From the IMG/VR virus record IMGVR_UViG_3300028591_000079, positions 128,001-192,000 of that record: a stretch of 64,000 bases of DNA; one strand, written 5' to 3'. Position numbers and translations under genes: made by a program. This stretch comes from a virus (taxonomy: Duplodnaviria; Caudoviricetes). Under the pieces are notes generated by a model that saw only the letters and a list, made by a program, of their open reading frames with translations, did no database searches and was not told where the DNA came from. Shown in pieces: positions 4,717 to 52,133 of this stretch. Positions within the stretch are counted from its first letter, which is position 1, and each line of letters opens with the position of its first letter.

Positions 4717-4876
4717 AGAAATATTAGAACGTGAATACTATTTAATAACTGAAATGCATATGTCATATAGTGATCTTGAAACAATGCCGATGGAATATAT
4801 AGAATGGTTCTACAGAAAAGATTACTATGAAAAAAACAAAGATCAAAACAGTGAAGACGCAGTAACAGGATTGTAA
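4694..4876 (+). CDS. gp51-like segment, probably a frameshift extension of 3982..4716 (absent from the ORF track)
   Basis: +1 frame reads FFPLITIEEILEREYYLITEMHMSYSDLETMPMEYIEWFYRK..TGL*; it opens just before a T7 run at 4693-4699. Confidence 0.65.
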   Translation, partial: FFPLITIEEILEREYYLITEMHMSYSDLETMPMEYIEWFYRKDYYEKNKDQNSEDAVTGL

Positions 4877-4878
4877 TA

Positions 4879-6627
4879 ATGGCAACAAAAATAAGCGGAA
4901 TAAAAGGTATCAATATTTCGAAATCATCTGTACTCAAGGATGGTAGTAAAAAAGCTGGCGCAAATGATAGTTTTAGAGATACTGCAAATGGAACAACAAG
5001 GGATAACTCTAAAAACAACAACCAGAGTGCCCTTGATGCCGCTATGATAAAAATGCTTCTTGGACAAACCGAGCTTATGGCCAAAAAGACTCAAGAAATA
5101 GAAGCAAATATGCGTAGAGCCGAAAAAAAAGAAGAAGAAAGACAAAAAACAAAAGAAAGGATAGATAGGGAAAAAAACGAAAAAAGAATAGAAAAAACAT
5201 ATGATTCTATTGATGGTGGTCTTGTAAATAGTGCTTTGTCTGGAGTTTTTGGTCCAATTGGTGTTATGCTTGGTAAAGGATTAAATAAAGCAGGGCTTCC
5301 ATTAAATAAAATACCAACAAAAATTATGTCTAAAGTTTTTGGTGGTGGAAGCATAAAATCATCTGGTGGAAGATGGGGAGGAGGATATGAAAATCAAACA
5401 AGTGGCGCTCTAGATGTAAACAGAAGAGAAACAGAAGCAGAACCAATAAATAGATTAAATAATTCTGTTTCATCTCGACTTGATACAATTATAGAATTGC
5501 TTGGAGGGAAAAGAAGAAGTGAAAATGGAGAAGATGAAGATGGCAAAAAAAAGAGTTGGTTAGGAAGATTATTGGACAATTTTCTTCCCAAGGGTTGGCT
5601 TGGCAGGTTGTTGGGTTGGCTTGGACCAAAATTAGCGTATCTAGCTGGAATTGCAGGCTTAGCATATGGTTTTCATAAGTTTTGGAATTGGATAAAGGAT
5701 AAATTTGGCACAGATTGGGCAAATAGTTTAACTGCCACATTGGCACAAGCAATAAAAGGTGCATTAAAAGGTGTTGGAACAAGTTTAGAAAACACAGCCA
5801 AATCTTTGAAGGCACTAAAAAAAGGTTTTGTTGGTTCAAAAGTTTACGGAGGTTTATCAAAGGGATTACAAAAACTAGCAAACAGCGGTAAAATTGGCAA
5901 CTTTGTTTTTGGCGGTGCAGCAAAAAGAGCAAGAGCTGCATCAATTGCAGCACAAAAAACGTTTCAATCTGGTGTGCTTGGAAAAACTGGAACACTCTTA
6001 TCAAAAGCCGGAAAAACTCTGGGTAAGGCTGGTAAGATTGGTGGATATGTTGGCGATTTTGTTATTGCTGCCGAAAATTTATATGATGCTCATAAAAAAT
6101 ATAAAGCAGGAGATAAAAGAGGTGCCGCAGGCTCTGTTGGAAGAGGGGCTGGAACAATTTTAGGCGGCACCATTGGAGCAAAAGGTGGTGCTGCTGCGGG
6201 TGCGGCGCTTGGTACAATGATATTTCCTGGTGTAGGTACGCTTATTGGTGGTGCATTAGGTGGTCTTATTGGAACATTTGCCGGGTCACATGTTGGATCA
6301 AAATTAGGGGCAAAAATCGGAGAAAAAACTTATGATTTAGCAACGGACACAAAACCAGAAGTTCAATCCGAGGGGCAATATACAACAGAAAACACAAATG
6401 GTTATGAGTCGTTACAACTACAAAGCGAATCACTCAATATGCAAAACGAAATATTGAATTCATTAAGGCAAATTGAATATAATCTAAATCCAAATGTTCA
6501 AAAAAGCTTGGATCAATCATATTTAAATAACGCCCAAAGAATGTTTGATAGACCACCAGAATATGATGAATACTATCAAGATTATGTTGGTATAAATCCA
6601 AATATGACATCTTTGTTGAATAAATAA
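4879..6627 (+). CDS. Tape measure protein (gp29-like)
   Basis: 582 aa, helical Ala/Gly/Lys-rich with glycine-zipper segments; follows the chaperone genes. Confidence 0.75.
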   Translation: MATKISGIKGINISKSSVLKDGSKKAGANDSFRDTANGTTRDNSKNNNQSALDAAMIKMLLGQTELMAKKTQEIEANMRRAEKKEEERQKTKERIDREKNEKRIEKTYDSIDGGLVNSALSGVFGPIGVMLGKGLNKAGLPLNKIPTKIMSKVFGGGSIKSSGGRWGGGYENQTSGALDVNRRETEAEPINRLNNSVSSRLDTIIELLGGKRRSENGEDEDGKKKSWLGRLLDNFLPKGWLGRLLGWLGPKLAYLAGIAGLAYGFHKFWNWIKDKFGTDWANSLTATLAQAIKGALKGVGTSLENTAKSLKALKKGFVGSKVYGGLSKGLQKLANSGKIGNFVFGGAAKRARAASIAAQKTFQSGVLGKTGTLLSKAGKTLGKAGKIGGYVGDFVIAAENLYDAHKKYKAGDKRGAAGSVGRGAGTILGGTIGAKGGAAAGAALGTMIFPGVGTLIGGALGGLIGTFAGSHVGSKLGAKIGEKTYDLATDTKPEVQSEGQYTTENTNGYESLQLQSESLNMQNEILNSLRQIEYNLNPNVQKSLDQSYLNNAQRMFDRPPEYDEYYQDYVGINPNMTSLLNK

Positions 6628-43774: not shown

Positions 43775-44029
43775 TTATTCGATTACTTCTTTATAGTCTT
43801 TTTCTCTTATTAACCACACATTTCTTCTTCTGTTATTCATATCATACATTCTATATCTCCAAAAAACTCTATTACTCAAAACCAAGGCAAGAAAAACACG
43901 AGTATCTACATCTACAGTTTTTCTTTCTACAACCTTTTTAGTGCCAAATTTTATTTCTGCATTGTTTATTTCATAGAGTTTTTGGTTTTCTGGCACATCA
44001 TTGCTAAAAATCACAAAACTAACCTTCAC
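43775..44029 (-). CDS. Hypothetical protein
   Basis: GTG start overlapping the end of clpP. Confidence 0.5.
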
Positions 44030-44615
44030 GACTTACCTTTATACCATCAATTAGGCCTTTTTTACCGTATTTTTTAGCGTCTTCTGCCTTCAAATAACAA
44101 TCTCTTTCAATATCTTGTGCGATTTTGGACTTTTTTTCACCACTGACCTCAGAATAAAAATCTACTAGCCAATCTTTCATGTCTTGAATGTTTTTTGCTT
44201 GAATTTGAATGTCGGTAGCTTGTCCCTTTGCGCCACCCAATGGCTGATGTATCATAATTTCAGTATCTTTCAGTGCAAATCTCTTACCTTTAGCACCACC
44301 AGCCAACAAAACAGATGCCCCAGATGCACACATACCCATACCCAAAGTAGAAACATCACAAGAAACATAATTCATAGCATTCAAAATAGCACGAGTAGCA
44401 GTAACAGAACCGCCTGGAGAATTGATCCACATTTGAATGTCTTTATTTTTATCTTCTGATTCTAAAAACAACAATTGTGCCACTACACTGTTTGCTAATT
44501 CGTCTGTGATTTCTTCACCAACAAAGATAATGCGATCAGACAACAACCGAGAATAGATATCACATGCACGTTCACCATCCTTAGTTTTAGAAATAACCAT
44601 TGGTATCAAAGCCAT
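44019..44615 (-). CDS. clpP: ATP-dependent Clp protease proteolytic subunit
   Basis: [30 protein letters not shown] (Ser), MIHQP (His), ERD (Asp). Confidence 0.96.
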
Positions 44616-44670: not shown

Positions 44671-44700
44671 AAAAAACCCCAAGAATAATTTCGAGGGGTT
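44671..44700 (-). terminator. Terminator downstream of the spanin genes
   Basis: Minus strand AACCCC..GGGGTT followed by T tract. Confidence 0.7.
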
Positions 44701-45302: not shown

Positions 45303-45615
45303 TTTTATACCTCTCAAAATTTTTCCAATATAATTGTTTACCACATTTTTGTACAGTACTTATATTATAGAACCAGCAATCATCAAAATTACATACAATT
45401 ATTTCTTTTGAACAATTACCTTCCCATGTGCCATCTTTATTATATCCACCGGTCCACCATCCGAAAGTTTTATATTCTTCACATACCCACTTGATTTGGG
45501 CTGGTTTTATTTTGAATCCTGTTTTTCCTATTTTGGCCTCTTTTTCTGTGCAAGGTTTTTTATATATCCCAGGTTCTCTTATATACACCCAAGTTTTTTT
45601 ATTTGTGTTTTCCAT
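45280..45615 (-). CDS. Hypothetical protein
   Basis: 111-aa ORF overlapping its neighbours. Confidence 0.55.
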   Translation of the reverse strand: MENTNKKTWVYIREPGIYKKPCTEKEAKIGKTGFKIKPAQIKWVCEEYKTFGWWTGGYNKDGTWEGNCSKEIIVCNFDDCWFYNISTVQKCGKQLYWKNFERYKNVRIIKN

Positions 45616-46171
45616 AATATAATTCTCTAAAATGTTTTCTGCAGACAGATTTATAGATTGTATCCCCTAATTGTACTCCTGATCCACCTTTTACAACATT
45701 ACCTTTGGAATCAAATAATAAATGATGATCCGCTAGTTTCATACACCCTTCTATTTGACAATTTGATTTTAGTTGATGTAATTTTGCTCCAACTTCAATT
45801 AATCTTTTAGAAGTTGGAAACATATGCTCATTATAATCCACCAAAAGACCGTAACACATTACTATTTTATTTTCTTTATCTGCCATTTCCACCAATTTGT
45901 CTATATCTTCCGGGGTAAAAAATTGAACCTCATCTACTAATATTACTTTTGTTTCTTTTTTGGGATGATAATTTTGCAAATCTTTTAGTGACAATGCTGG
46001 AGTTTCAATACCAATACGAGACTTTATAATAACATCTCCAAATCTATTATCAAATGATGGCTTTATACACTCCACCTTGACACCATTCTTTTTCCAATTA
46101 TAAGCTTGCATAATAAGCTCTGCAGATTTTGAAGTTCCCATGGTACCATAAGTAAAATGCAAATTAGCCAT
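45599..46171 (-). CDS. tdk: Thymidine kinase
   Basis: YGTMGTSKS, KSRIG, LVDEVQF, CYGL..D, YKSVCRKH. Confidence 0.95.
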   Translation of the reverse strand: MANLHFTYGTMGTSKSAELIMQAYNWKKNGVKVECIKPSFDNRFGDVIIKSRIGIETPALSLKDLQNYHPKKETKVILVDEVQFFTPEDIDKLVEMADKENKIVMCYGLLVDYNEHMFPTSKRLIEVGAKLHQLKSNCQIEGCMKLADHHLLFDSKGNVVKGGSGVQLGDTIYKSVCRKHFRELYYGKHK

Positions 46172-46259: not shown

Positions 46260-47387
46260 TTATTTGATTCTATTGACTCTATAAAACATACCTTGGCGAC
46301 TAAAAGTTTTTATGTTTTTAGCACCAATGTAACTACCACAACTACGTAAAGACCCACATATATCATTTATAGTGGTTTGTATTGGCCCAGTATATGGAAC
46401 CAACTTACACTCAACGCCTTCACTTGTACCAGTTGATGTTACTTTACCATAATTTTCTCTTTGAGCTCTAAATGAACTCATTCCATAATATTCTTTGAAA
46501 AATTTGTATGTGATTTTATTTTTCAATGTATCTGGATCAACTTCTTCTGTTTTATACCATTTCTGGATCTTTTCCCCGTTAGATTCTTCACATCCAGCAA
46601 ACATTGAACCACTCATGCACATATCAGCTCCAGCAACCAAAGCCTTACAAAAATCAGCATTAGTTTTGAAACCACCATCGGCAATAATATAACCACCTAC
46701 TTGATGAGCCGCATTTGCGCATTCGATAATAGCTGACAACTGAGGTCTTCCACATCCAGTTTTGATTCTAGTATCGCAAACGGGAGAAGGACCAATACCA
46801 ACTTTTACGAAATCTGCACCAGCCAATATTAACTTTTGAACTTCATCACCAGAACAAACATTGCCCACAGCGATCAACCCACCATGAAAGTTTTGTTTGT
46901 TCATAAATTCACGCAACTGTTTTACACAATCTACAATTTCAGGAATATAAGCATTTGGAACATCTAACAATACACTTACCAATGCACCAGTTTCTTTATA
47001 TACAATTTCTACTTTCTTAAATTCTTCTTCCCAATTGCGTTTTCCTACGGTTATAAACAAATTTCTTTCATTACCATAATATTCGCCACAACCATCAATA
47101 CCACCATAAATAATATCTTTCTCTTTTTGCTCTTTTATAAATTCAATGATCTGATCTGCTTTATAAAATTTATGTAGTGTAGCAAAGAATTCATTTTCCA
47201 ATAACTTACTAGCAACAGCAAAAGTACCAGTTTGAGTCATGTTAGCTGAAATAATAGGAACACCACAAACTCCTAAATGTTTATACTCTCTTACGATCTC
47301 TACATCCCCTCTGTGATTAATTGTGGTAGTCTGTGGAGCAATTAGAACATCATCAAAATCTAATTGAACATCGTTGTGTATTATCAT
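46260..47387 (-). CDS. guaC: GMP reductase
   Basis: LDFDDVLI.P, PIISANM, LHKFY, VKVGIGPSPVCDTR..G.GRPQLSAI, IIADGG, YYGMSS, SEG; no CBS domain. Confidence 0.9.
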   Translation of the reverse strand: MIIHNDVQLDFDDVLIAPQTTTINHRGDVEIVREYKHLGVCGVPIISANMTQTGTFAVASKLLENEFFATLHKFYKADQIIEFIKEQKEKDIIYGGIDGCGEYYGNERNLFITVGKRNWEEEFKKVEIVYKETGALVSVLLDVPNAYIPEIVDCVKQLREFMNKQNFHGGLIAVGNVCSGDEVQKLILAGADFVKVGIGPSPVCDTRIKTGCGRPQLSAIIECANAAHQVGGYIIADGGFKTNADFCKALVAGADMCMSGSMFAGCEESNGEKIQKWYKTEEVDPDTLKNKITYKFFKEYYGMSSFRAQRENYGKVTSTGTSEGVECKLVPYTGPIQTTINDICGSLRSCGSYIGAKNIKTFSRQGMFYRVNRIK

Positions 47388-47398
47388 TTTATTTTCCT

Positions 47399-47980
47399 TT
47401 AGATAGATGCAGCCAATAATTTCATATAAGCCTCATCACGTTCTTTTCTTTCTTTTACAACTTTTTCTTTTAGACCCCAACTTTCAATACGTCCCACAAT
47501 CTTCTCCCAATCTTGATAATTATACCCACTACGGTTGTCGGCTGGATAACAATGTCCACGATGCTCTTTTTCATACTCGGTTAAGAATTCATCATCTAAT
47601 ATAATGTAATCTTCAACAGGGTGTTTTTCTAACATTTCTTTTATAATTCTCAACCTTAGCCATGGTTCCCTTTCTGTAAATCTACCGACTGGAGTATCTT
47701 TATATAAATCCAAATCTAACTTTTTGATATTAGCCCATTCTTTCACTTTGGCAATACTTTCTTCTTTATTGAATTGAAACTTCCAAGATGAAATTGAAAT
47801 AAAATGAACAACAACATCATCTGCAAGGTTTCTACAAGCACGATCAAGATAATTCAATTCATACAGATTTAAATCACGAAGCTCACCCATCTCTTGACCA
47901 ATTTTAGTATCATTTCGCCAAGTAGTAACATGAGCGAGTGGTCCGTCAAAATCTGCAAATATAAAAAACTCTTTTGCCAT
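47399..47980 (-). CDS. HAD-superfamily protein (RNA-repair-type HAD domain)
   Basis: FADFDG, ISSW, YIILDD; ATG at 47980. Confidence 0.7.
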   Translation of the reverse strand: MAKEFFIFADFDGPLAHVTTWRNDTKIGQEMGELRDLNLYELNYLDRACRNLADDVVVHFISISSWKFQFNKEESIAKVKEWANIKKLDLDLYKDTPVGRFTEREPWLRLRIIKEMLEKHPVEDYIILDDEFLTEYEKEHRGHCYPADNRSGYNYQDWEKIVGRIESWGLKEKVVKERKERDEAYMKLLAASI

Positions 47981-48876
47981 TATTCTACCTCTACAATTAG
48001 TTTTGGATTCCATTGTGGTTCTGCATAAGTCTCATTACCAGTTACATACCCAAACGGATTCTGATACACTGGAATTGAAACACCTTTGCCTTCTATTTTT
48101 CCTTGCCAACGATTATGCTGATGACCTTGAAGGATAAATGCTGTGTTTGGAATGTTTTCAATTATCCATTTTCTCAAATCATTACAAAAATAAGAATTTA
48201 GTGGTGATCCTTTGAATTCTTCTGCAGTTGATTCAGGTGTTACGGGGAAATGCGTCATCAATATAAATTTTCTACCTTTTTGCATGGCCCTAATATAAGC
48301 AATCTTGATGTCTGCCAAAGTATGTTCAAATTCTTTCCACATGTCATAAGGACTCATAATAACACTTCGATATGTGCTTTCAGGAATAGTATAAGTAAAC
48401 CTAAAATCACTTACACCATATTCAGCAGCCCTCATCGCCTCTTCCTGTTTATCTACACCATCTGACATAAAATTAGTCCACAATGTAGCACCAAACACAA
48501 TCGGAGCATGAATATCAAAATCATCTTCTGTTTTTTGGCAACTATAATCATCTCTATTGGCAAACACTATCAAATTACCAGACCCCAAGCAATCATATTC
48601 ACCTAAAACCTTTTTATATTCTTTATTTAAATCTTCATAACTAGCCTGAAAACCATACATAAAATGATTTCCACCAATAATAATGGCTCTTTGGTTTGGA
48701 ATATATTTATAACAGAATTCTTTTACTTCATTAGGACTAGAACCAACATCACCAGCAATAAGATTTACACCATCAAAACCATCATTCAACTTAGAAAACA
48801 TCTCATCAGTGTATTCTTCGTTGTAATGTTTGTTGTAATAATAATGATTATCACTAAAGAGTCTAAATTTAGTCAT
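47980..48876 (-). CDS. Calcineurin-like metallophosphoesterase
   Basis: SDNH, AGD, GNH, GATLW, THF, GHQH, NP.GY. Confidence 0.88.
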   Translation of the reverse strand: MTKFRLFSDNHYYYNKHYNEEYTDEMFSKLNDGFDGVNLIAGDVGSSPNEVKEFCYKYIPNQRAIIIGGNHFMYGFQASYEDLNKEYKKVLGEYDCLGSGNLIVFANRDDYSCQKTEDDFDIHAPIVFGATLWTNFMSDGVDKQEEAMRAAEYGVSDFRFTYTIPESTYRSVIMSPYDMWKEFEHTLADIKIAYIRAMQKGRKFILMTHFPVTPESTAEEFKGSPLNSYFCNDLRKWIIENIPNTAFILQGHQHNRWQGKIEGKGVSIPVYQNPFGYVTGNETYAEPQWNPKLIVEVE

Positions 48877-49198
48877 TTCTTTCTCCAACATAAAAATCAT
48901 AAAAATCTTCTGGTGTCATTAGTGCATATTTTTCTTCATCAATAGAAACGATAAAGTCTTCATTTATTCTACCGTTTCTGGATGGACTATAATACCAATC
49001 CATAAGTGGAGAATCGTCTGTTATTTCTAAACCAATAAGAGCAGACAGATATTTTATAGCACGTTCTTCGTTTATATCAGGAATCGAATGAAAAAAACCA
49101 CGAATGTAATTATCAAGAGCATCTTCAACAGCTTGTTTTTTCTGTTGTGCTTCAATGATTGCATCTAATTCTTCAACAAATTGTTCTTTTGTGATCAT
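48869..49198 (-). CDS. Hypothetical protein
   Basis: 109 aa, directly downstream of the structured RNA. Confidence 0.6.
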   Translation of the reverse strand: MITKEQFVEELDAIIEAQQKKQAVEDALDNYIRGFFHSIPDINEERAIKYLSALIGLEITDDSPLMDWYYSPSRNGRINEDFIVSIDEEKYALMTPEDFYDFYVGERND

Positions 49199-49214
49199 AT
49201 TATTCTCTTTTTAT

Positions 49215-49435
49215 TGTTGGACCGCGGTAAATGAAAACCATTCCAGCCTTAGGTTGTGTTGGGTCAACTATTTTACAAACAGTGCGTCTCTATCTCATAT
49301 TCTCTAGGCCACACCATTGTCCAAGGACTATGGAGATTGTATCCTTGGAAAAATCCCTTAGAGTCTCAACAGCTCCACACACATTGGCAGGTTACCCCTA
49401 TCAATCTCCTTTATTCATTTCATTATGGTCCAACA
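49215..49435 (-). ncRNA. Putative ~220-nt structured ncRNA with pseudoknots
   Basis: 9-bp closing stem, several nested stems, two pseudoknot pairings, raised GC, promoter aligned to its 5' end. Confidence 0.75.
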
Positions 49436-49440
49436 CCTTT

Positions 49441-49473
49441 ATTATAGTATTTTTAATTTAAATCACAAGTTAA
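49441..49473 (-). promoter_or_regulatory. Sigma70-like ATTAAA-class promoter driving the ncRNA
   Basis: Minus strand TTAAC-TTGTGA-tttaaATTAAAaatac-TATAAT. Confidence 0.75.
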
Positions 49474-50266
49474 AAGACGATCTAATACTAAATTCTAAAG
49501 ATTCTGCAGTGTCTTCTCTTGAATTTAGAACAATTGGTAATTTAGCCCCCATCAAAAGCCCTCCACAAACCCAATTTTCACTTAGCGCTGTTAGACTTTT
49601 CCAAATTGCATTACCTTCATTTATATCTTTTACAACAATAACATCTGACACTGGACCACTTATACCTTTTGATTCCCTAATGTTTTTATTGAGTGCCACA
49701 TCTAATTGTTCTATTCTTAGTTGTCCTTCTGGGTATTCAAATTTGTTTTTATTCCACCAATCGTAATAAAATGGATTTGTTTCTCTATTGTTTTCGCCGC
49801 CGGCAGACAATAAAGATGTATATATTTCTTTTTTCTCCCACACACATTTCAAATAAACTTCTGTAGCATATTGAATCGCTTTTGGTATCAAATCCTCAGC
49901 ATTCAATAATCTCAAGTTACATGCAGCATCGGTCAATATAAAAGTTTGATTTGTTTTTGTGTTTTTAAATATCCCACAATGAATCAATCTATCACCACCA
50001 AAATATTTATTCAACTCTATAATGGGTCTAATAAAGTTTTCTGTGTGAATTTTGCCTTTTACTATAATATATTTTTCTTTTATCATTGTTAGTGTCACGT
50101 TTTTATTTGTAGCAGCATCATCTAACTTAAAATGATCAACTAAAGAATTCCTACCAATAACAGGAACAACATAAACTTCACCAACAACATTTTCTTTTTT
50201 TAGTTTATCAAAGACTTTAGCATGTTTTTCTGTAATCTGACCCAACAATAATATATCTTTTTTCAT
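49463..50266 (-). CDS. Phosphate acetyl/butyryltransferase (PTA_PTB family)
   Basis: KG..HT..F, ILTDAA.N, LLSA, DV.VV.DI..GN..WKSL, G.LMGAK.PIVL.SR.D. Confidence 0.85.
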   Translation of the reverse strand: MKKDILLLGQITEKHAKVFDKLKKENVVGEVYVVPVIGRNSLVDHFKLDDAATNKNVTLTMIKEKYIIVKGKIHTENFIRPIIELNKYFGGDRLIHCGIFKNTKTNQTFILTDAACNLRLLNAEDLIPKAIQYATEVYLKCVWEKKEIYTSLLSAGGENNRETNPFYYDWWNKNKFEYPEGQLRIEQLDVALNKNIRESKGISGPVSDVIVVKDINEGNAIWKSLTALSENWVCGGLLMGAKLPIVLNSREDTAESLEFSIRSSFNL

Positions 50267-50268
50267 AA

Positions 50269-50478
50269 TTATAATTCCTTTGATCTTTCAATTACACTTT
50301 TGGCAGCATTTTTTATGGATTTTTTGAATTGTTTCCACATCTTTTCAATATCATCTGGTGTATCTGTTTCTTTCACATGTTCCATACAAAAAGCCAAATA
50401 CAGTTTTACATCAGACTTTTTTATCGTGTGCGGTACTTTTATGCATTTTAGCTTGCTATTGATTTCCTTCATTTTCAT
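50269..50478 (-). CDS. Hypothetical protein
   Basis: Short ORF in operon. Confidence 0.5.
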   Translation of the reverse strand: MKMKEINSKLKCIKVPHTIKKSDVKLYLAFCMEHVKETDTPDDIEKMWKQFKKSIKNAAKSVIERSKEL

Positions 50479-51040
50479 CTTTATAATCCCTCCAGTCCAT
50501 TTTTAACATTGTATTTAGATAGTCCATAAGATTTCTTGTTTCTTCATCGTCTATACATAAATCAGCAACAGTCCAACAACCGTTTTTCAATACTCTCCAA
50601 GCTTTTGACCATCTTGTGTGCTTTTCCCATAATAAACACTCTGGGCACATCCAAATTGTAAAAGTATCATCAAAAGTATCTGGTTCAACAAGTAATGCAT
50701 TGAAAGTACCCAAATCATGAAAATAAGTACCAAATAAACCTACATTTTTTCCCGTTTTTGGTTTATATCCTGTTGCTTTTTTTAGATCTTTCAACAATTG
50801 TTGTGCTCTGTCTTTTGGTAAACATATAACATCTTGCCCTCTGTTTGTGTACCCCTTGAACAATATTGCAAAAAAATCTTTAATCTTATTCCACCACAAA
50901 TACCATGCAGACCTTTGTGATCCCATATAAGTAAATAATGTCCAATAAGTTACATATGGTACATTATTGGCTGGATTTTTATTTACATCTAATCTCAAAG
51001 CATCCATTTCACAACTACAAGAATAATAAGAATTAATCAT
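50456..51040 (-). CDS. Hypothetical protein with an internal duplication
   Basis: AAGGAG RBS; two similar halves. Confidence 0.6.
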   Translation of the reverse strand: MINSYYSCSCEMDALRLDVNKNPANNVPYVTYWTLFTYMGSQRSAWYLWWNKIKDFFAILFKGYTNRGQDVICLPKDRAQQLLKDLKKATGYKPKTGKNVGLFGTYFHDLGTFNALLVEPDTFDDTFTIWMCPECLLWEKHTRWSKAWRVLKNGCWTVADLCIDDEETRNLMDYLNTMLKMDWRDYKDENEGNQ

Positions 51041-51051
51041 TTTAACTCCTT

Positions 51052-51576
51052 TTATTTGATTTTTTCTTCTACAAAATGATTATCTTCATCATAGTATACA
51101 ACATATTTTATTCCGCATCTACGTAAAAATTCCCAACATCCTTTACATGGTTTTGAGCTTCCTCTAGTATCAGATAACAATCCACCCTTTCTTCTTGCTA
51201 CAACTATCATAGGAATCTTTAAGGATCTTACAAATTCAAAAAAATACTTTTCTTGGCTTTCTGTTGGATTAGTTATTTTATTTGTGAACATAGCGCCAAC
51301 CCCAGCAACATCCAATTCCATTATTGTTCTTGAATCTATAACTTTAGTAACATAATTTCTAACAGCATCCAATTCACAATGACTACCTCTCTGATCTCGC
51401 CTATATCCGTTTTTTTGCTTCATCCAAAAATATGGTTGTTTGGTATTATGTCCTATTGATAATATATTCCCGTCTTTATCTAACAAACAAGCAGCCATTC
51501 TTTGCCGATATTCTGAGTTTACAGTTTCATCAAAAGCAACATTTAAAGCTTTCAACATTTCATGACGGTTTATCAA
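51052..51576 (-). CDS. Cytidine/dCMP deaminase-like zinc protein
   Basis: ILSIGHN, HCE, SKPCKGC..GIKYVVY. Confidence 0.85.
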   Translation of the reverse strand: MINRHEMLKALNVAFDETVNSEYRQRMAACLLDKDGNILSIGHNTKQPYFWMKQKNGYRRDQRGSHCELDAVRNYVTKVIDSRTIMELDVAGVGAMFTNKITNPTESQEKYFFEFVRSLKIPMIVVARRKGGLLSDTRGSSKPCKGCWEFLRRCGIKYVVYYDEDNHFVEEKIK

Positions 51577-51596
51577 AATTTTCTCCTTTTTTTAGT

Positions 51597-51624
51597 ATTA
51601 TATTGAACTTAATAAAAAATGCAA
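51597..51624 (-). promoter_or_regulatory. Sigma70-like promoter heading the minus-strand accessory block
   Basis: Minus strand TTGCAT-ttttTATTAAGttcaa-TATAAT. Confidence 0.65.
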
Positions 51625-51657
51625 TTAAAAAATTTTCTCAAACTAATTAATTTTCAT

Positions 51658-51664
51658 AGTTCTA
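51658..51664 (+). promoter_or_regulatory. Putative late promoter motif AGTTCTA heading the terminase operon
   Basis: In the divergent intergenic region. Confidence 0.7.
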
Positions 51665-51719
51665 TTTATTAGATATACTATTTGAATGGAGAAACCTATA
51701 TACAAGAGAATTAGTTAAA

Positions 51720-52133
51720 ATGTCATTACAGAAGATGGATCCAGACACTAAAATGGAGATAATCATCAATATGGCATGGGGCACTCCGCTAAAAATTATT
51801 GCACAAAAGTATAAGACCACAGAAAGTAAAATTATAAACCTTAGAAAAAACAACTATAAACTATATAATCAAATTTCAGAAGGTTTTTATATAGCAGATG
51901 AAGTTGCGGTTTTAGGTTTATGTCCAATACATGAAAGAGCTGTAAATGTAATAAGAAACAAATACAAATCTCGTTTCAAAATATTAGATGAAAATAATTA
52001 CTTACTTGATGGTTCTGCAATACTAATGGATAAAATAATAGAAATAGCAGACTCCATTATAGCTTTAGATGATATTCCTCCACTAAACGAAAGTAGATGG
52101 TTGAAGAATTTTTATAAAGAATGTAAAAAGTAA
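51720..52133 (+). CDS. Hypothetical protein with possible N-terminal HTH
   Basis: GTPLKIIAQKY.TTESKI. Confidence 0.5.
   Translation: MSLQKMDPDTKMEIIINMAWGTPLKIIAQKYKTTESKIINLRKNNYKLYNQISEGFYIADEVAVLGLCPIHERAVNVIRNKYKSRFKILDENNYLLDGSAILMDKIIEIADSIIALDDIPPLNESRWLKNFYKECKK

Follow-up and report, generated by a model that had tools for sequence, protein, structure and literature searches.

A pseudoknotted RNA without an Rfam family, predicted upstream of a nucleotide-metabolism operon in uncultured jumbo phages

Introduction

What occupies the one wide gap in an otherwise tightly packed run of phage genes? In a 231,064-bp phage genome of the IMG/VR database (Duplodnaviria; Caudoviricetes; record IMGVR_UViG_3300028591_000079; 96% complete, 32.2% GC), two minus-strand genes, 49463..50266 and 48869..49198, are separated by 264 bp. 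These coordinates, like all others below unless stated otherwise, refer to the stretch of 64,000 nt that we analyzed (bases 128001–192000 of the record), hereafter called the window. A preliminary description, made from the sequence of the window, proposed that the gap lacks a credible open reading frame (ORF) and encodes an independently promoted, pseudoknotted noncoding RNA (ncRNA) of no recognized family. Our comparative analysis leaves very little doubt that the RNA exists, that it adopts the fold presented here, and that it represents a new family. Its role is a more tentative matter, and we favor an autonomous functional RNA domain that would be co-transcribed with the downstream operon.

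Results

Covariation among homologues

The first downstream ORF encodes a protein of 109 amino acids (aa) with 20 relatives at 56–95% identity. Copies of the element were gathered from the contigs of these relatives and from five JGI metagenome contigs found by means of a conserved RNA pattern. This gave 16 distinct element sequences for alignment, all from metagenomic contigs of related ~230-kb jumbo phages (individual contigs are given below as L numbers), and a further copy of the RNA, in the same synteny, is present in L033 and L034. Going by record names alone (XIEF21-1, TONG22-1), some of the homologues suggest a ruminant-gut origin. Helices were taken from column-pair statistics together with RNAalifold, a covariance model (R1) was built, and all copies were refitted to it (alignment A4). 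As controls, every 3' partner strand was slid by 1–3 columns, and 500 shuffles were made. R1 matched the window copy with 252.5 bits (E = 1.5e-67), and this is the single copy in the 231-kb genome.

The resulting model comprises nine helices and 57 pairs. Across the 16 sequences, 98.5% of the 912 alignment cells are paired, as opposed to 31–43% in the slid controls, a percentage that is inflated because the fold was derived from the same sequences that were used for counting. Such inflation does not account for the surplus of compensatory changes: 16 pairs have changed on both sides compared with 0–5 in the slid controls, and none of the 500 shuffles matched the observed pairing values. The thermodynamic fold of the single sequence is unexceptional (z = -1.62), and the structural evidence is the covariation. 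In addition, G-U pairs account for ~11% of cells and several of them are invariant, which makes the fold specific to the gene (minus) strand. Conservation among the homologues ends at the edges of the closing stem, P1.

The predicted molecule is a rod of stacked helices (P1, P2, P6, and P3) capped by a three-way junction. P1 and P2 are followed by an internal loop that carries the 5' strand of pseudoknot 1 (PK1), then by P6, by P3a/P3a'/P3b, and by the three-way junction, from which hairpins P4 and P5 extend. PK1 forms where the loop of P4 reaches back to the P2-P6 internal loop. The parts of the RNA are as follows.

49215..49435, minus strand: structured RNA of ~220 nt, first to last P1 pair, matched by model R1
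49427..49435, minus strand: P1 5' arm, (U)GUUGGACC, pairing with 49215–49223; 4 of 8 pairs change on both sides
49215..49223, minus strand: P1 3' arm, GGUCCAAC(A), pairing with 49427–49435
49414..49420, minus strand: P2 5' arm, AAAUGAA, pairing with 49229–49235; 2 covarying pairs, 99% of cells paired
49229..49235, minus strand: P2 3' arm, UUCAUUU, partner of 49414–49420
49402..49409, minus strand: PK1 5' strand, GGAGAUUG, in the P2-P6 internal loop; 3 covarying pairs, seen in 8, 8, and 4 sequences
49332..49339, minus strand: PK1 3' strand, CAAUCUCC, within the P4 hairpin loop
49389..49401, minus strand: junction strand, AUAGGGGUAACCU; 14 of 18 columns invariant over 5 lineages
49386..49388, minus strand: P6 5' arm, GCC, pairing with GGC at 49246–49248; 100% of cells paired
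49371..49383, minus strand: P3 5' strand, UGUGU-G-UGG-AGCU (P3a, P3a', P3b), pairing with 49255–49269
49255..49269, minus strand: P3 3' strand, AGUU-GAC-CCA-ACACA, with an invariant GAC bulge, partner of 49371–49383
49350..49370, minus strand: junction strand between P3b and P4, (GUUG)AGACUCUAAGGGAUUUU; 14 of 21 columns invariant over 5 lineages
49320..49349, minus strand: P4 hairpin, UCCAAG / CUUGGA, with an 18-nt loop that includes the PK1 3' strand; 2 covarying pairs, 100% of cells paired
49278..49318, minus strand: P5 hairpin, AAUGGUGUG / CGCACUGUU; 2 covarying pairs, variable tip at 49287–49309

P1 occurs in four versions, each of them complementary: UGUUGGACC/GGUCCAACA, GUUGGGUC/GRCCCAAC, GUAGAUC/GAUCUAC, and UGCUGAAYC/GGUUYAGCA. 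PK1 likewise covaries, for example as GGAGA/UCUCC, UGGGA/UCCCA, and UGGGG/CCCCA. The third pair of P6 is found as C-G, U-G, and U-A; P3a/P3a' contain 2 covarying pairs, and P3b is invariant except for one C-to-U change that gives U-G. The tip of P5 is 16 nt shorter in L006/L007/L019 and replaced in L010/L018, with only 8% of its columns invariant. AGGG (49396–49399) may pair with CUCU (49360–49363), and AGRG/CUCU shows one-sided changes only. GGU and ACC (49237–49239 and 49226–49228) flank the 3' arm of P2 and may close a 3-bp helix around it, which could represent an alternative or kissing-type arrangement; its one covarying pair, U-A in 12 sequences and G-C in 4, possibly reflects a single evolutionary event.

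All of the complementarities listed in the preliminary description are present in the window sequence, and most of its helices reappear in the homologues, namely the closing stem (P1), AAAUGAA/UUCAUUU (P2), the UGUGU(G)UGG stem (P3a/P3a'), the stem 49342–49349/49320–49327 (P4), and the pseudoknot between the P4 loop and the 5' internal loop (PK1). Its AGCUGUU/AAUAGUU helix survives in part: 4–5 bp are conserved, but the remainder is not and none of its pairs covaries. GGUGUG/CGCACU, offered as a possible second pseudoknot, is conserved and covarying, but it forms the nested hairpin P5. The stem CUCU(A)AGG/CCUAGAG had to be abandoned, as it shows no covarying pair and 15 mismatched cells, and its 3' partner lies in the P5 tip that three homologues have deleted and two have replaced. 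The general proposal, a compact and tertiary-folded RNA that should covary among homologues, is borne out by the pseudoknotted model and its 16 compensatory pairs.

A conserved core with a drifting periphery

To judge sequence conservation, we took as a neutral baseline the 4-fold degenerate sites of the flanking genes, 36% of which are invariant over 5 lineages. Over the same lineages, 61% of the paired RNA columns are invariant, and values of 62–100% were obtained for the junction strands AUAGGGGUAACC.GC.AA, AGACUCUAAGGGAUUUU, UGUAAAAU, and ACCUAA and for the GAC bulge, with the core junction columns at 67–100%. The P4 loop outside PK1, the P5 tip, and the outer junctions reach 8–29%. The junction strands that surround P6, P3, and the three-way junction are thus where the invariant nucleotides concentrate, while peripheral loops drift, and this combination of a conserved core and a free periphery points to a putative binding pocket or active center around these three elements.

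Composition and coding potential of the gap

The raised GC content noted at the outset was confirmed: the element has 42.5–42.7% GC compared with the genome average of 32.2%, which places it in the top 1.7% of all 220-nt genome windows. When the 42 ORF-free gaps of at least 150 nt were ranked by GC, the top three were the two tRNA clusters and the RNA gap, the tRNA clusters being the only noncoding gaps that are richer. The composition signal therefore marks structured RNA genes in this phage genome. ARAGORN found no tRNA or tmRNA in the window or at the locus, in agreement with the absence of such hallmarks reported earlier, and the same program finds the 8 tRNA genes of the phage elsewhere. 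These form two clusters outside the window, Ala, Asn, Thr, and Leu and His, Pro, Phe, and Trp (genome positions 90763–92347 and 217892–218201).

The gap might instead hold no functional RNA at all, and consist of a decayed or unrecognized coding gene, a DNA-level element, or chance complementarity. The ordinary single-sequence fold energy fits this view, as do stop-free stretches of 60–72 codons on the opposite strand. However, these stretches lie in differing frames among the homologues, which are separated by indels of 1, 2, 3, and 16 nt, so that any reading frame across the gap is broken. The two mechanical plus-strand ORFs in the gap (76 and 63 aa) were accordingly judged noncoding, as the preliminary description had held, and gene callers called no gene in the gap on any homologous contig. 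A leader peptide was also rejected, given that the short AUG-led frames are different in each lineage. Together with the compensatory pairs and the strand-specific G-U pairs, these observations make a nonfunctional gap highly improbable.

Relation to known RNA families

Searching the 64-kb window with Rfam 15 (4227 models) at gathering score gave no match, and neither did a search of 49100–49600 (501 nt) at E ≤ 10. The same models gave nothing over the RNA on five divergent homologous loci. They covered riboswitches, ribozymes, group I and II introns, RNase P, 6S, SRP, tmRNA, GOLLD, ROOL, HEARO, and EAR. In addition, the conserved strings of the RNA did not occur in the literature searched by sequence string. 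The RNA is thus a new family relative to Rfam 15, as the preliminary description had anticipated; the comparison was made with Rfam models rather than with the candidate lists of a 2023 survey that reports 10,006 predicted viral structured RNAs (PMC10690425), and novelty of mechanism is a separate question.

Several specific resemblances did not hold. The preliminary description had likened one segment to the raiA motif RNA, but when the complete phage genome was searched at E ≤ 10, the corresponding model (RF03072, gathering score 101.3 bits) had no match. A likeness of AUAGGGGUAACCUGC to helix 45 of 16S rRNA is confined to the window-type sequence and unconserved in the homologues, and a resemblance to the cobalamin B12 box fails because the elements are in the wrong order and the model is unmatched. 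We also rejected a group I intron: there is no Intron_gpI match, the upstream protein is full length (265–270 aa) in relatives that lack the RNA, the downstream ORF has its own ribosome-binding site (RBS) and ATG, and the next ORF follows directly in the RNA-less relatives.

Promoter and linker

Two further features flank the RNA.

49441..49468, minus strand: sigma-70-type promoter, TTGTGA-16-TATAAT, whose -35 box overlaps the stop codon of the PTA_PTB-like gene
49199..49214, minus strand: A-rich unstructured linker with RBS AAUAAAAAGAGAAUAAU, followed by the AUG at 49198; predicted mostly unpaired

The promoter had been proposed from the window sequence and was recovered by our scan. Its consensus is TTGnnA, a spacer of 16–17 nt, and TATAAT, with both hexamers present in 15 of the 16 homologues and a variable spacer sequence. 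Most homologues carry an extended -10 element (TGn), the -10 box ends 5–6 nt before P1, and the promoter is predicted to place the transcription start at the first P1 pair. Promoter-like scanning is noisy in AT-rich DNA (55 sites compared with 40 expected), and neither it nor the unexceptional fold energy proves anything alone.

Partition-function folds of 11 homologues left the linker, RBS, and AUG mostly unpaired, without a shared partner and without an RBS-sequestering helix. Two candidates for such pairing were rejected: complementarity of the RBS to the P4 loop or to ACUCU is inconsistent among homologues, and an alternative helix between the P1 3' arm and the ORF (CAACAA/UUGUUG) is confined to the window-type sequence. 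The first clear terminator-like site lies at ~44680–44696, just before the ClpP gene, with one weak match inside a gene before it. As judged from these signals, the RNA is continuous with the downstream mRNA and has no recognizable expression platform.

Gene neighborhood

The minus-strand run upstream of the gap encodes, in order, a dCMP deaminase, ORFs of 194 and 69 aa, and the PTA_PTB-like protein (49463–50266). After the gap come the 109-aa ORF, a metallophosphoesterase, a HAD_SAK_2 phosphatase, an IMPDH/GMP-reductase-family enzyme, a thymidine kinase, and three small ORFs. The nucleotide-metabolism operon 3' of the RNA is ~4.7 kb long and includes the genes from the 109-aa ORF to the thymidine kinase. 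The ORFs that directly follow the RNA or its slot are the following.

48869..49198, minus strand: first downstream ORF in the window, 109 aa, family-less; 20 homologues, without Pfam or PHROG match
2140–2400 in L003, 2260–2511 in L012, and 5140–5439 in L024, and also present in L013, L017, L020, and L033: extra ORF of 83–99 aa

An AF2 model of the 109-aa protein (pLDDT 84) gave no fold match in the PDB. The extra ORF belongs to no known family. In five RNA-bearing lineages, where it measures 83–86 aa, it separates the RNA from the 109/113-aa ORF, and it is also found in L024, which lacks the RNA. The lineage of the window does not have it, and BLASTP (E = 0.12) shows it to be no paralogue of the 109-aa protein. 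The first ORF 3' of the RNA varies by lineage, with 86 or 109 aa.

The module of a PTA_PTB-like protein, small ORF(s), metallophosphoesterase, and IMPDH/GMP-reductase-family enzyme (46260–51576, minus strand) is shared with the distant jumbo-phage contigs L024, L035, and L036. Its PTA-like protein has 40–48% identity across distant contigs, a dCMP deaminase often precedes the module, and the module places a phosphotransacetylase-like enzyme inside a nucleotide-metabolism cluster. The phage carries genes for the ClpP protease (44019–44615) and the thymidine kinase (45599–46171), both on the minus strand; the nearest bacterial matches of ClpP (43–57% identity) are scattered over unrelated phyla and so give no clue to the host. 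The genes diverge at 51577–51720, where the minus-strand nucleotide-metabolism run gives way to genes on the plus strand, which start at 51720; this intergenic region is AT-rich (23–29% GC) and has promoter-like sites on both strands.

Distribution and relatives without the RNA

PTA-like proteins fall into a group with 69–74% identity, in which the RNA is present wherever the contig allows a check, and a second group with at most 48% identity, whose sampled members (L011, L024, L035, and L036) lack it. These RNA-less relatives retain the PTA-like protein, small ORF(s), metallophosphoesterase, and IMPDH gene, L011 only the first two of these. In L024 (202.7 kb), the slot of the RNA is taken by a hydrophobic, membrane-like ORF of 122 aa (4761–5129), which Pfam assigns to no family with confidence, and a homologue of the 86-aa ORF comes next. 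With the slot being variable and the module kept by the RNA-less relatives, the RNA and its promoter look like an insertion into an older module. The RNA-bearing clade alone has the HAD_SAK_2 gene (47399–48013, minus strand), placed between those for the metallophosphoesterase and IMPDH, and this gene is missing from L024, L035, and L036; since the RNA was probably gained or lost once, this co-occurrence counts as a single event and is weak evidence of a functional link.

Wider searches returned nothing closer. A filter-free R1 search of L011 and L024 yielded noise only (at most 15 bits over short stretches). Three conserved patterns had no copy in 185,579 bacterial species genomes, although exact patterns cannot exclude diverged relatives. 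In IMG/VR, the pattern AAAATAGTTGNCCNANCACAACC had two chance matches inside coding sequence (L014 and L015), and the other two patterns did not occur. Against 50,697 GenBank phage records, blastn and megablast searches with the element and its 12-kb flank found nothing, and tblastn searches with the flanking proteins found remote matches or none. Searches of IMG/VR with single flanking proteins gave no related loci, and alignment-based searches gave one RNA-less relative, L024. Collectively, these searches indicate that the RNA is confined to one small clade of ~230-kb phages, at a single locus.

Discussion

Our preferred reading, to which we give a probability of roughly 0.4, is that this member of a new family acts as an autonomous functional domain and shares its transcript with the operon. 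As an "RNA moron," it would have entered an older gene module together with its promoter. Transcription would place it at the 5' end of the operon mRNA, from which cleavage in the open A-rich linker would probably release it, and its folded core would bind a protein or small-ligand partner or perform a reaction on itself; ribozyme, ribonucleoprotein scaffold, and decoy roles, which the preliminary description had named, are possibilities. This reading accommodates a promoter that starts at P1, a self-contained conserved domain, and an open linker and RBS with neither a terminator nor a sequestering helix. It is also consistent with the variable slot, the lineage-dependent first downstream ORF, and the lack of a bacterial counterpart in the pattern scans. 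Because no expression platform is visible, the RNA would not be a classical riboswitch.

A number of observations weigh against this reading. Our terminator scan found no terminator or other 3'-end signal after the RNA, and a discrete RNA would consequently need processing. In every homologue, the RBS and ATG of the next same-strand ORF come 16–21 nt past P1. In L012, a deletion of ~19 nt (about 1990–2020, compared with L017) removes the -10 box and leaves the RNA intact, with a compensated P1, so that the RNA could be produced there only inside a polycistronic transcript. The partner-protein search identified none: a TROVE/Ro60 search of the 96%-complete genome gave no match (control genomes matched), RtcB and RNA ligase searches found no gene, and an RVT_1 search found no reverse transcriptase. 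Links to Y RNAs, RNA repair, and retron- or DRT-type systems were dropped as unsupported on the same grounds. Finally, all representatives are orthologues at a single locus, which makes genomic association almost uninformative on function. The earlier claim of an independently promoted ncRNA therefore stands as far as the promoter is concerned, with its conserved hexamers (sequence evidence only), but the discrete transcript is weakened by the missing terminator, the nearby RBS and ATG, and L012.

These same features make the RNA, by its anatomy, also a 5' leader or an intercistronic element. The preliminary description had allowed that the element might act only as the 5' untranslated region of 48869..49198; the anatomy agrees with a leader role, which may or may not be the only one. 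A possible alternative to the autonomous domain, and one that we take seriously, is accordingly a cis-acting sensor or leader, in which the domain binds a metabolite (most plausibly a nucleotide-related one) or a protein and controls the downstream operon. With several helices closed by P1 and an invariant core at the junction, the domain resembles a large aptamer, and it sits in a 5' leader, on the same strand as the gene that follows. It always lies 16–21 nt before the next ORF with no terminator between, and L012 retains it although its promoter is lost there, as expected of an intercistronic element. Downstream genes code for an IMPDH/GMP-reductase-family enzyme, phosphatases, and a thymidine kinase, and purine-sensing riboswitches commonly control such nucleotide-metabolism genes in bacteria. 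However, there is neither a terminator/antiterminator nor a helix that masks the RBS or start codon, and the linker is predicted to be open in all homologues folded. Control would then have to proceed without an obvious sequence platform, for example by a change in the stability of the transcript, by Rho-dependent termination, or by steric interference with 30S subunits that load close to P1. Moreover, the first regulated ORF varies between lineages, relatives run the same gene module without the RNA, and, unlike known phage riboswitches, this RNA has no bacterial counterpart in the pattern scans.

Self-cleavage would also account for defined RNA ends in the absence of a terminator and, in L012, of a promoter. 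The RNA could be a self-processing ribozyme of a new class, cutting at or near its own boundary and separating the upstream cistrons from the operon mRNA; its size, pseudoknot, and invariant junction core are within the glmS-like range. Nevertheless, it matches no Rfam ribozyme family and shows no identifiable cleavage site, and this purely inferential proposal seems improbable to us. We consider slightly less probable still a generic structural 5' element, which would protect the 5' end of the mRNA or act in put/EAR-like processive antitermination. The RNA does form the very beginning of the long operon transcript, right after the promoter. Known mRNA stabilizers are simple hairpins, and known antitermination RNAs measure 65–120 nt; ~60 invariant unpaired nucleotides and a pseudoknot exceed the needs of such roles. 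Apart from the one weak in-gene match, there is no terminator-like site to override before ~44.7 kb, and in L012 the RNA is not at the 5' end.

A bolder reading, which we regard as unlikely though well worth considering, is that the RNA founds a phage-specific class whose core is catalytic or senses a ligand, either a self-processing ribozyme or a phage-only riboswitch. If true, it would be a new ribozyme that cuts the polycistronic transcript where the RNA itself ends or begins, or the first riboswitch class to be found in phages alone, in which a nucleotide-pool metabolite tunes a nucleotide-salvage operon. To our knowledge, known phage riboswitches belong to bacterial classes. New RNA classes of at least ~200 nt with a complex and well-supported fold are rare, and earlier ones yielded new ribozymes, riboswitch ligands, or RNA-protein machines. 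The present RNA is compact enough for structural work and comes with a covariation-backed secondary structure that includes a pseudoknot. Its close relatives with the same gene module, with and without the RNA, amount to a natural experiment. It appears to have been inserted into a nucleotide-metabolism module that is conserved among uncultured jumbo phages, and its role may therefore be relevant to the way in which large phages handle the nucleotide pools of their hosts.

How does the RNA compare with known systems? The raiA motif RNA, a bacterial RNA of Bacillota and Actinomycetota, is similar in its length of ~200–220 nt, its multi-helix pseudoknotted fold, its location upstream of a gene, and its orphan status as to function. 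The phage RNA differs in being found only in phage contigs and in having no RF03072 match. Y RNA and YrlA, the partners of Ro60, share a long closing stem in which the 5' end pairs with the 3' end, and HAD_SAK_2, a name taken from RNA-repair proteins, is encoded near the phage RNA, yet the latter has no Rfam Y RNA match and no tRNA-like module according to ARAGORN.

Large aptamers, such as THF-I with its loop-to-internal-loop pseudoknot, cobalamin with its kissing loop, and glmS, are likewise P1-closed domains in 5' leaders with invariant junction nucleotides. They also share the rod with a three-way junction and a hairpin loop that docks on an internal loop. In contrast to them, the phage RNA matches no such sequence or model, is about twice the size of THF-I, and lacks a terminator or RBS sequestration. 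GOLLD and ROOL are 2.5–4 times larger, often lie beside tRNAs, and are present in Rfam, whereas the phage RNA is more than 40 kb from the tRNA clusters. What it has in common with GOLLD, ROOL, and the stable RNAs C and D of T4 is that all are phage-encoded, structured, and orphans as to function, and these orphan phage RNAs are probably co-transcribed with their neighbors and processed.

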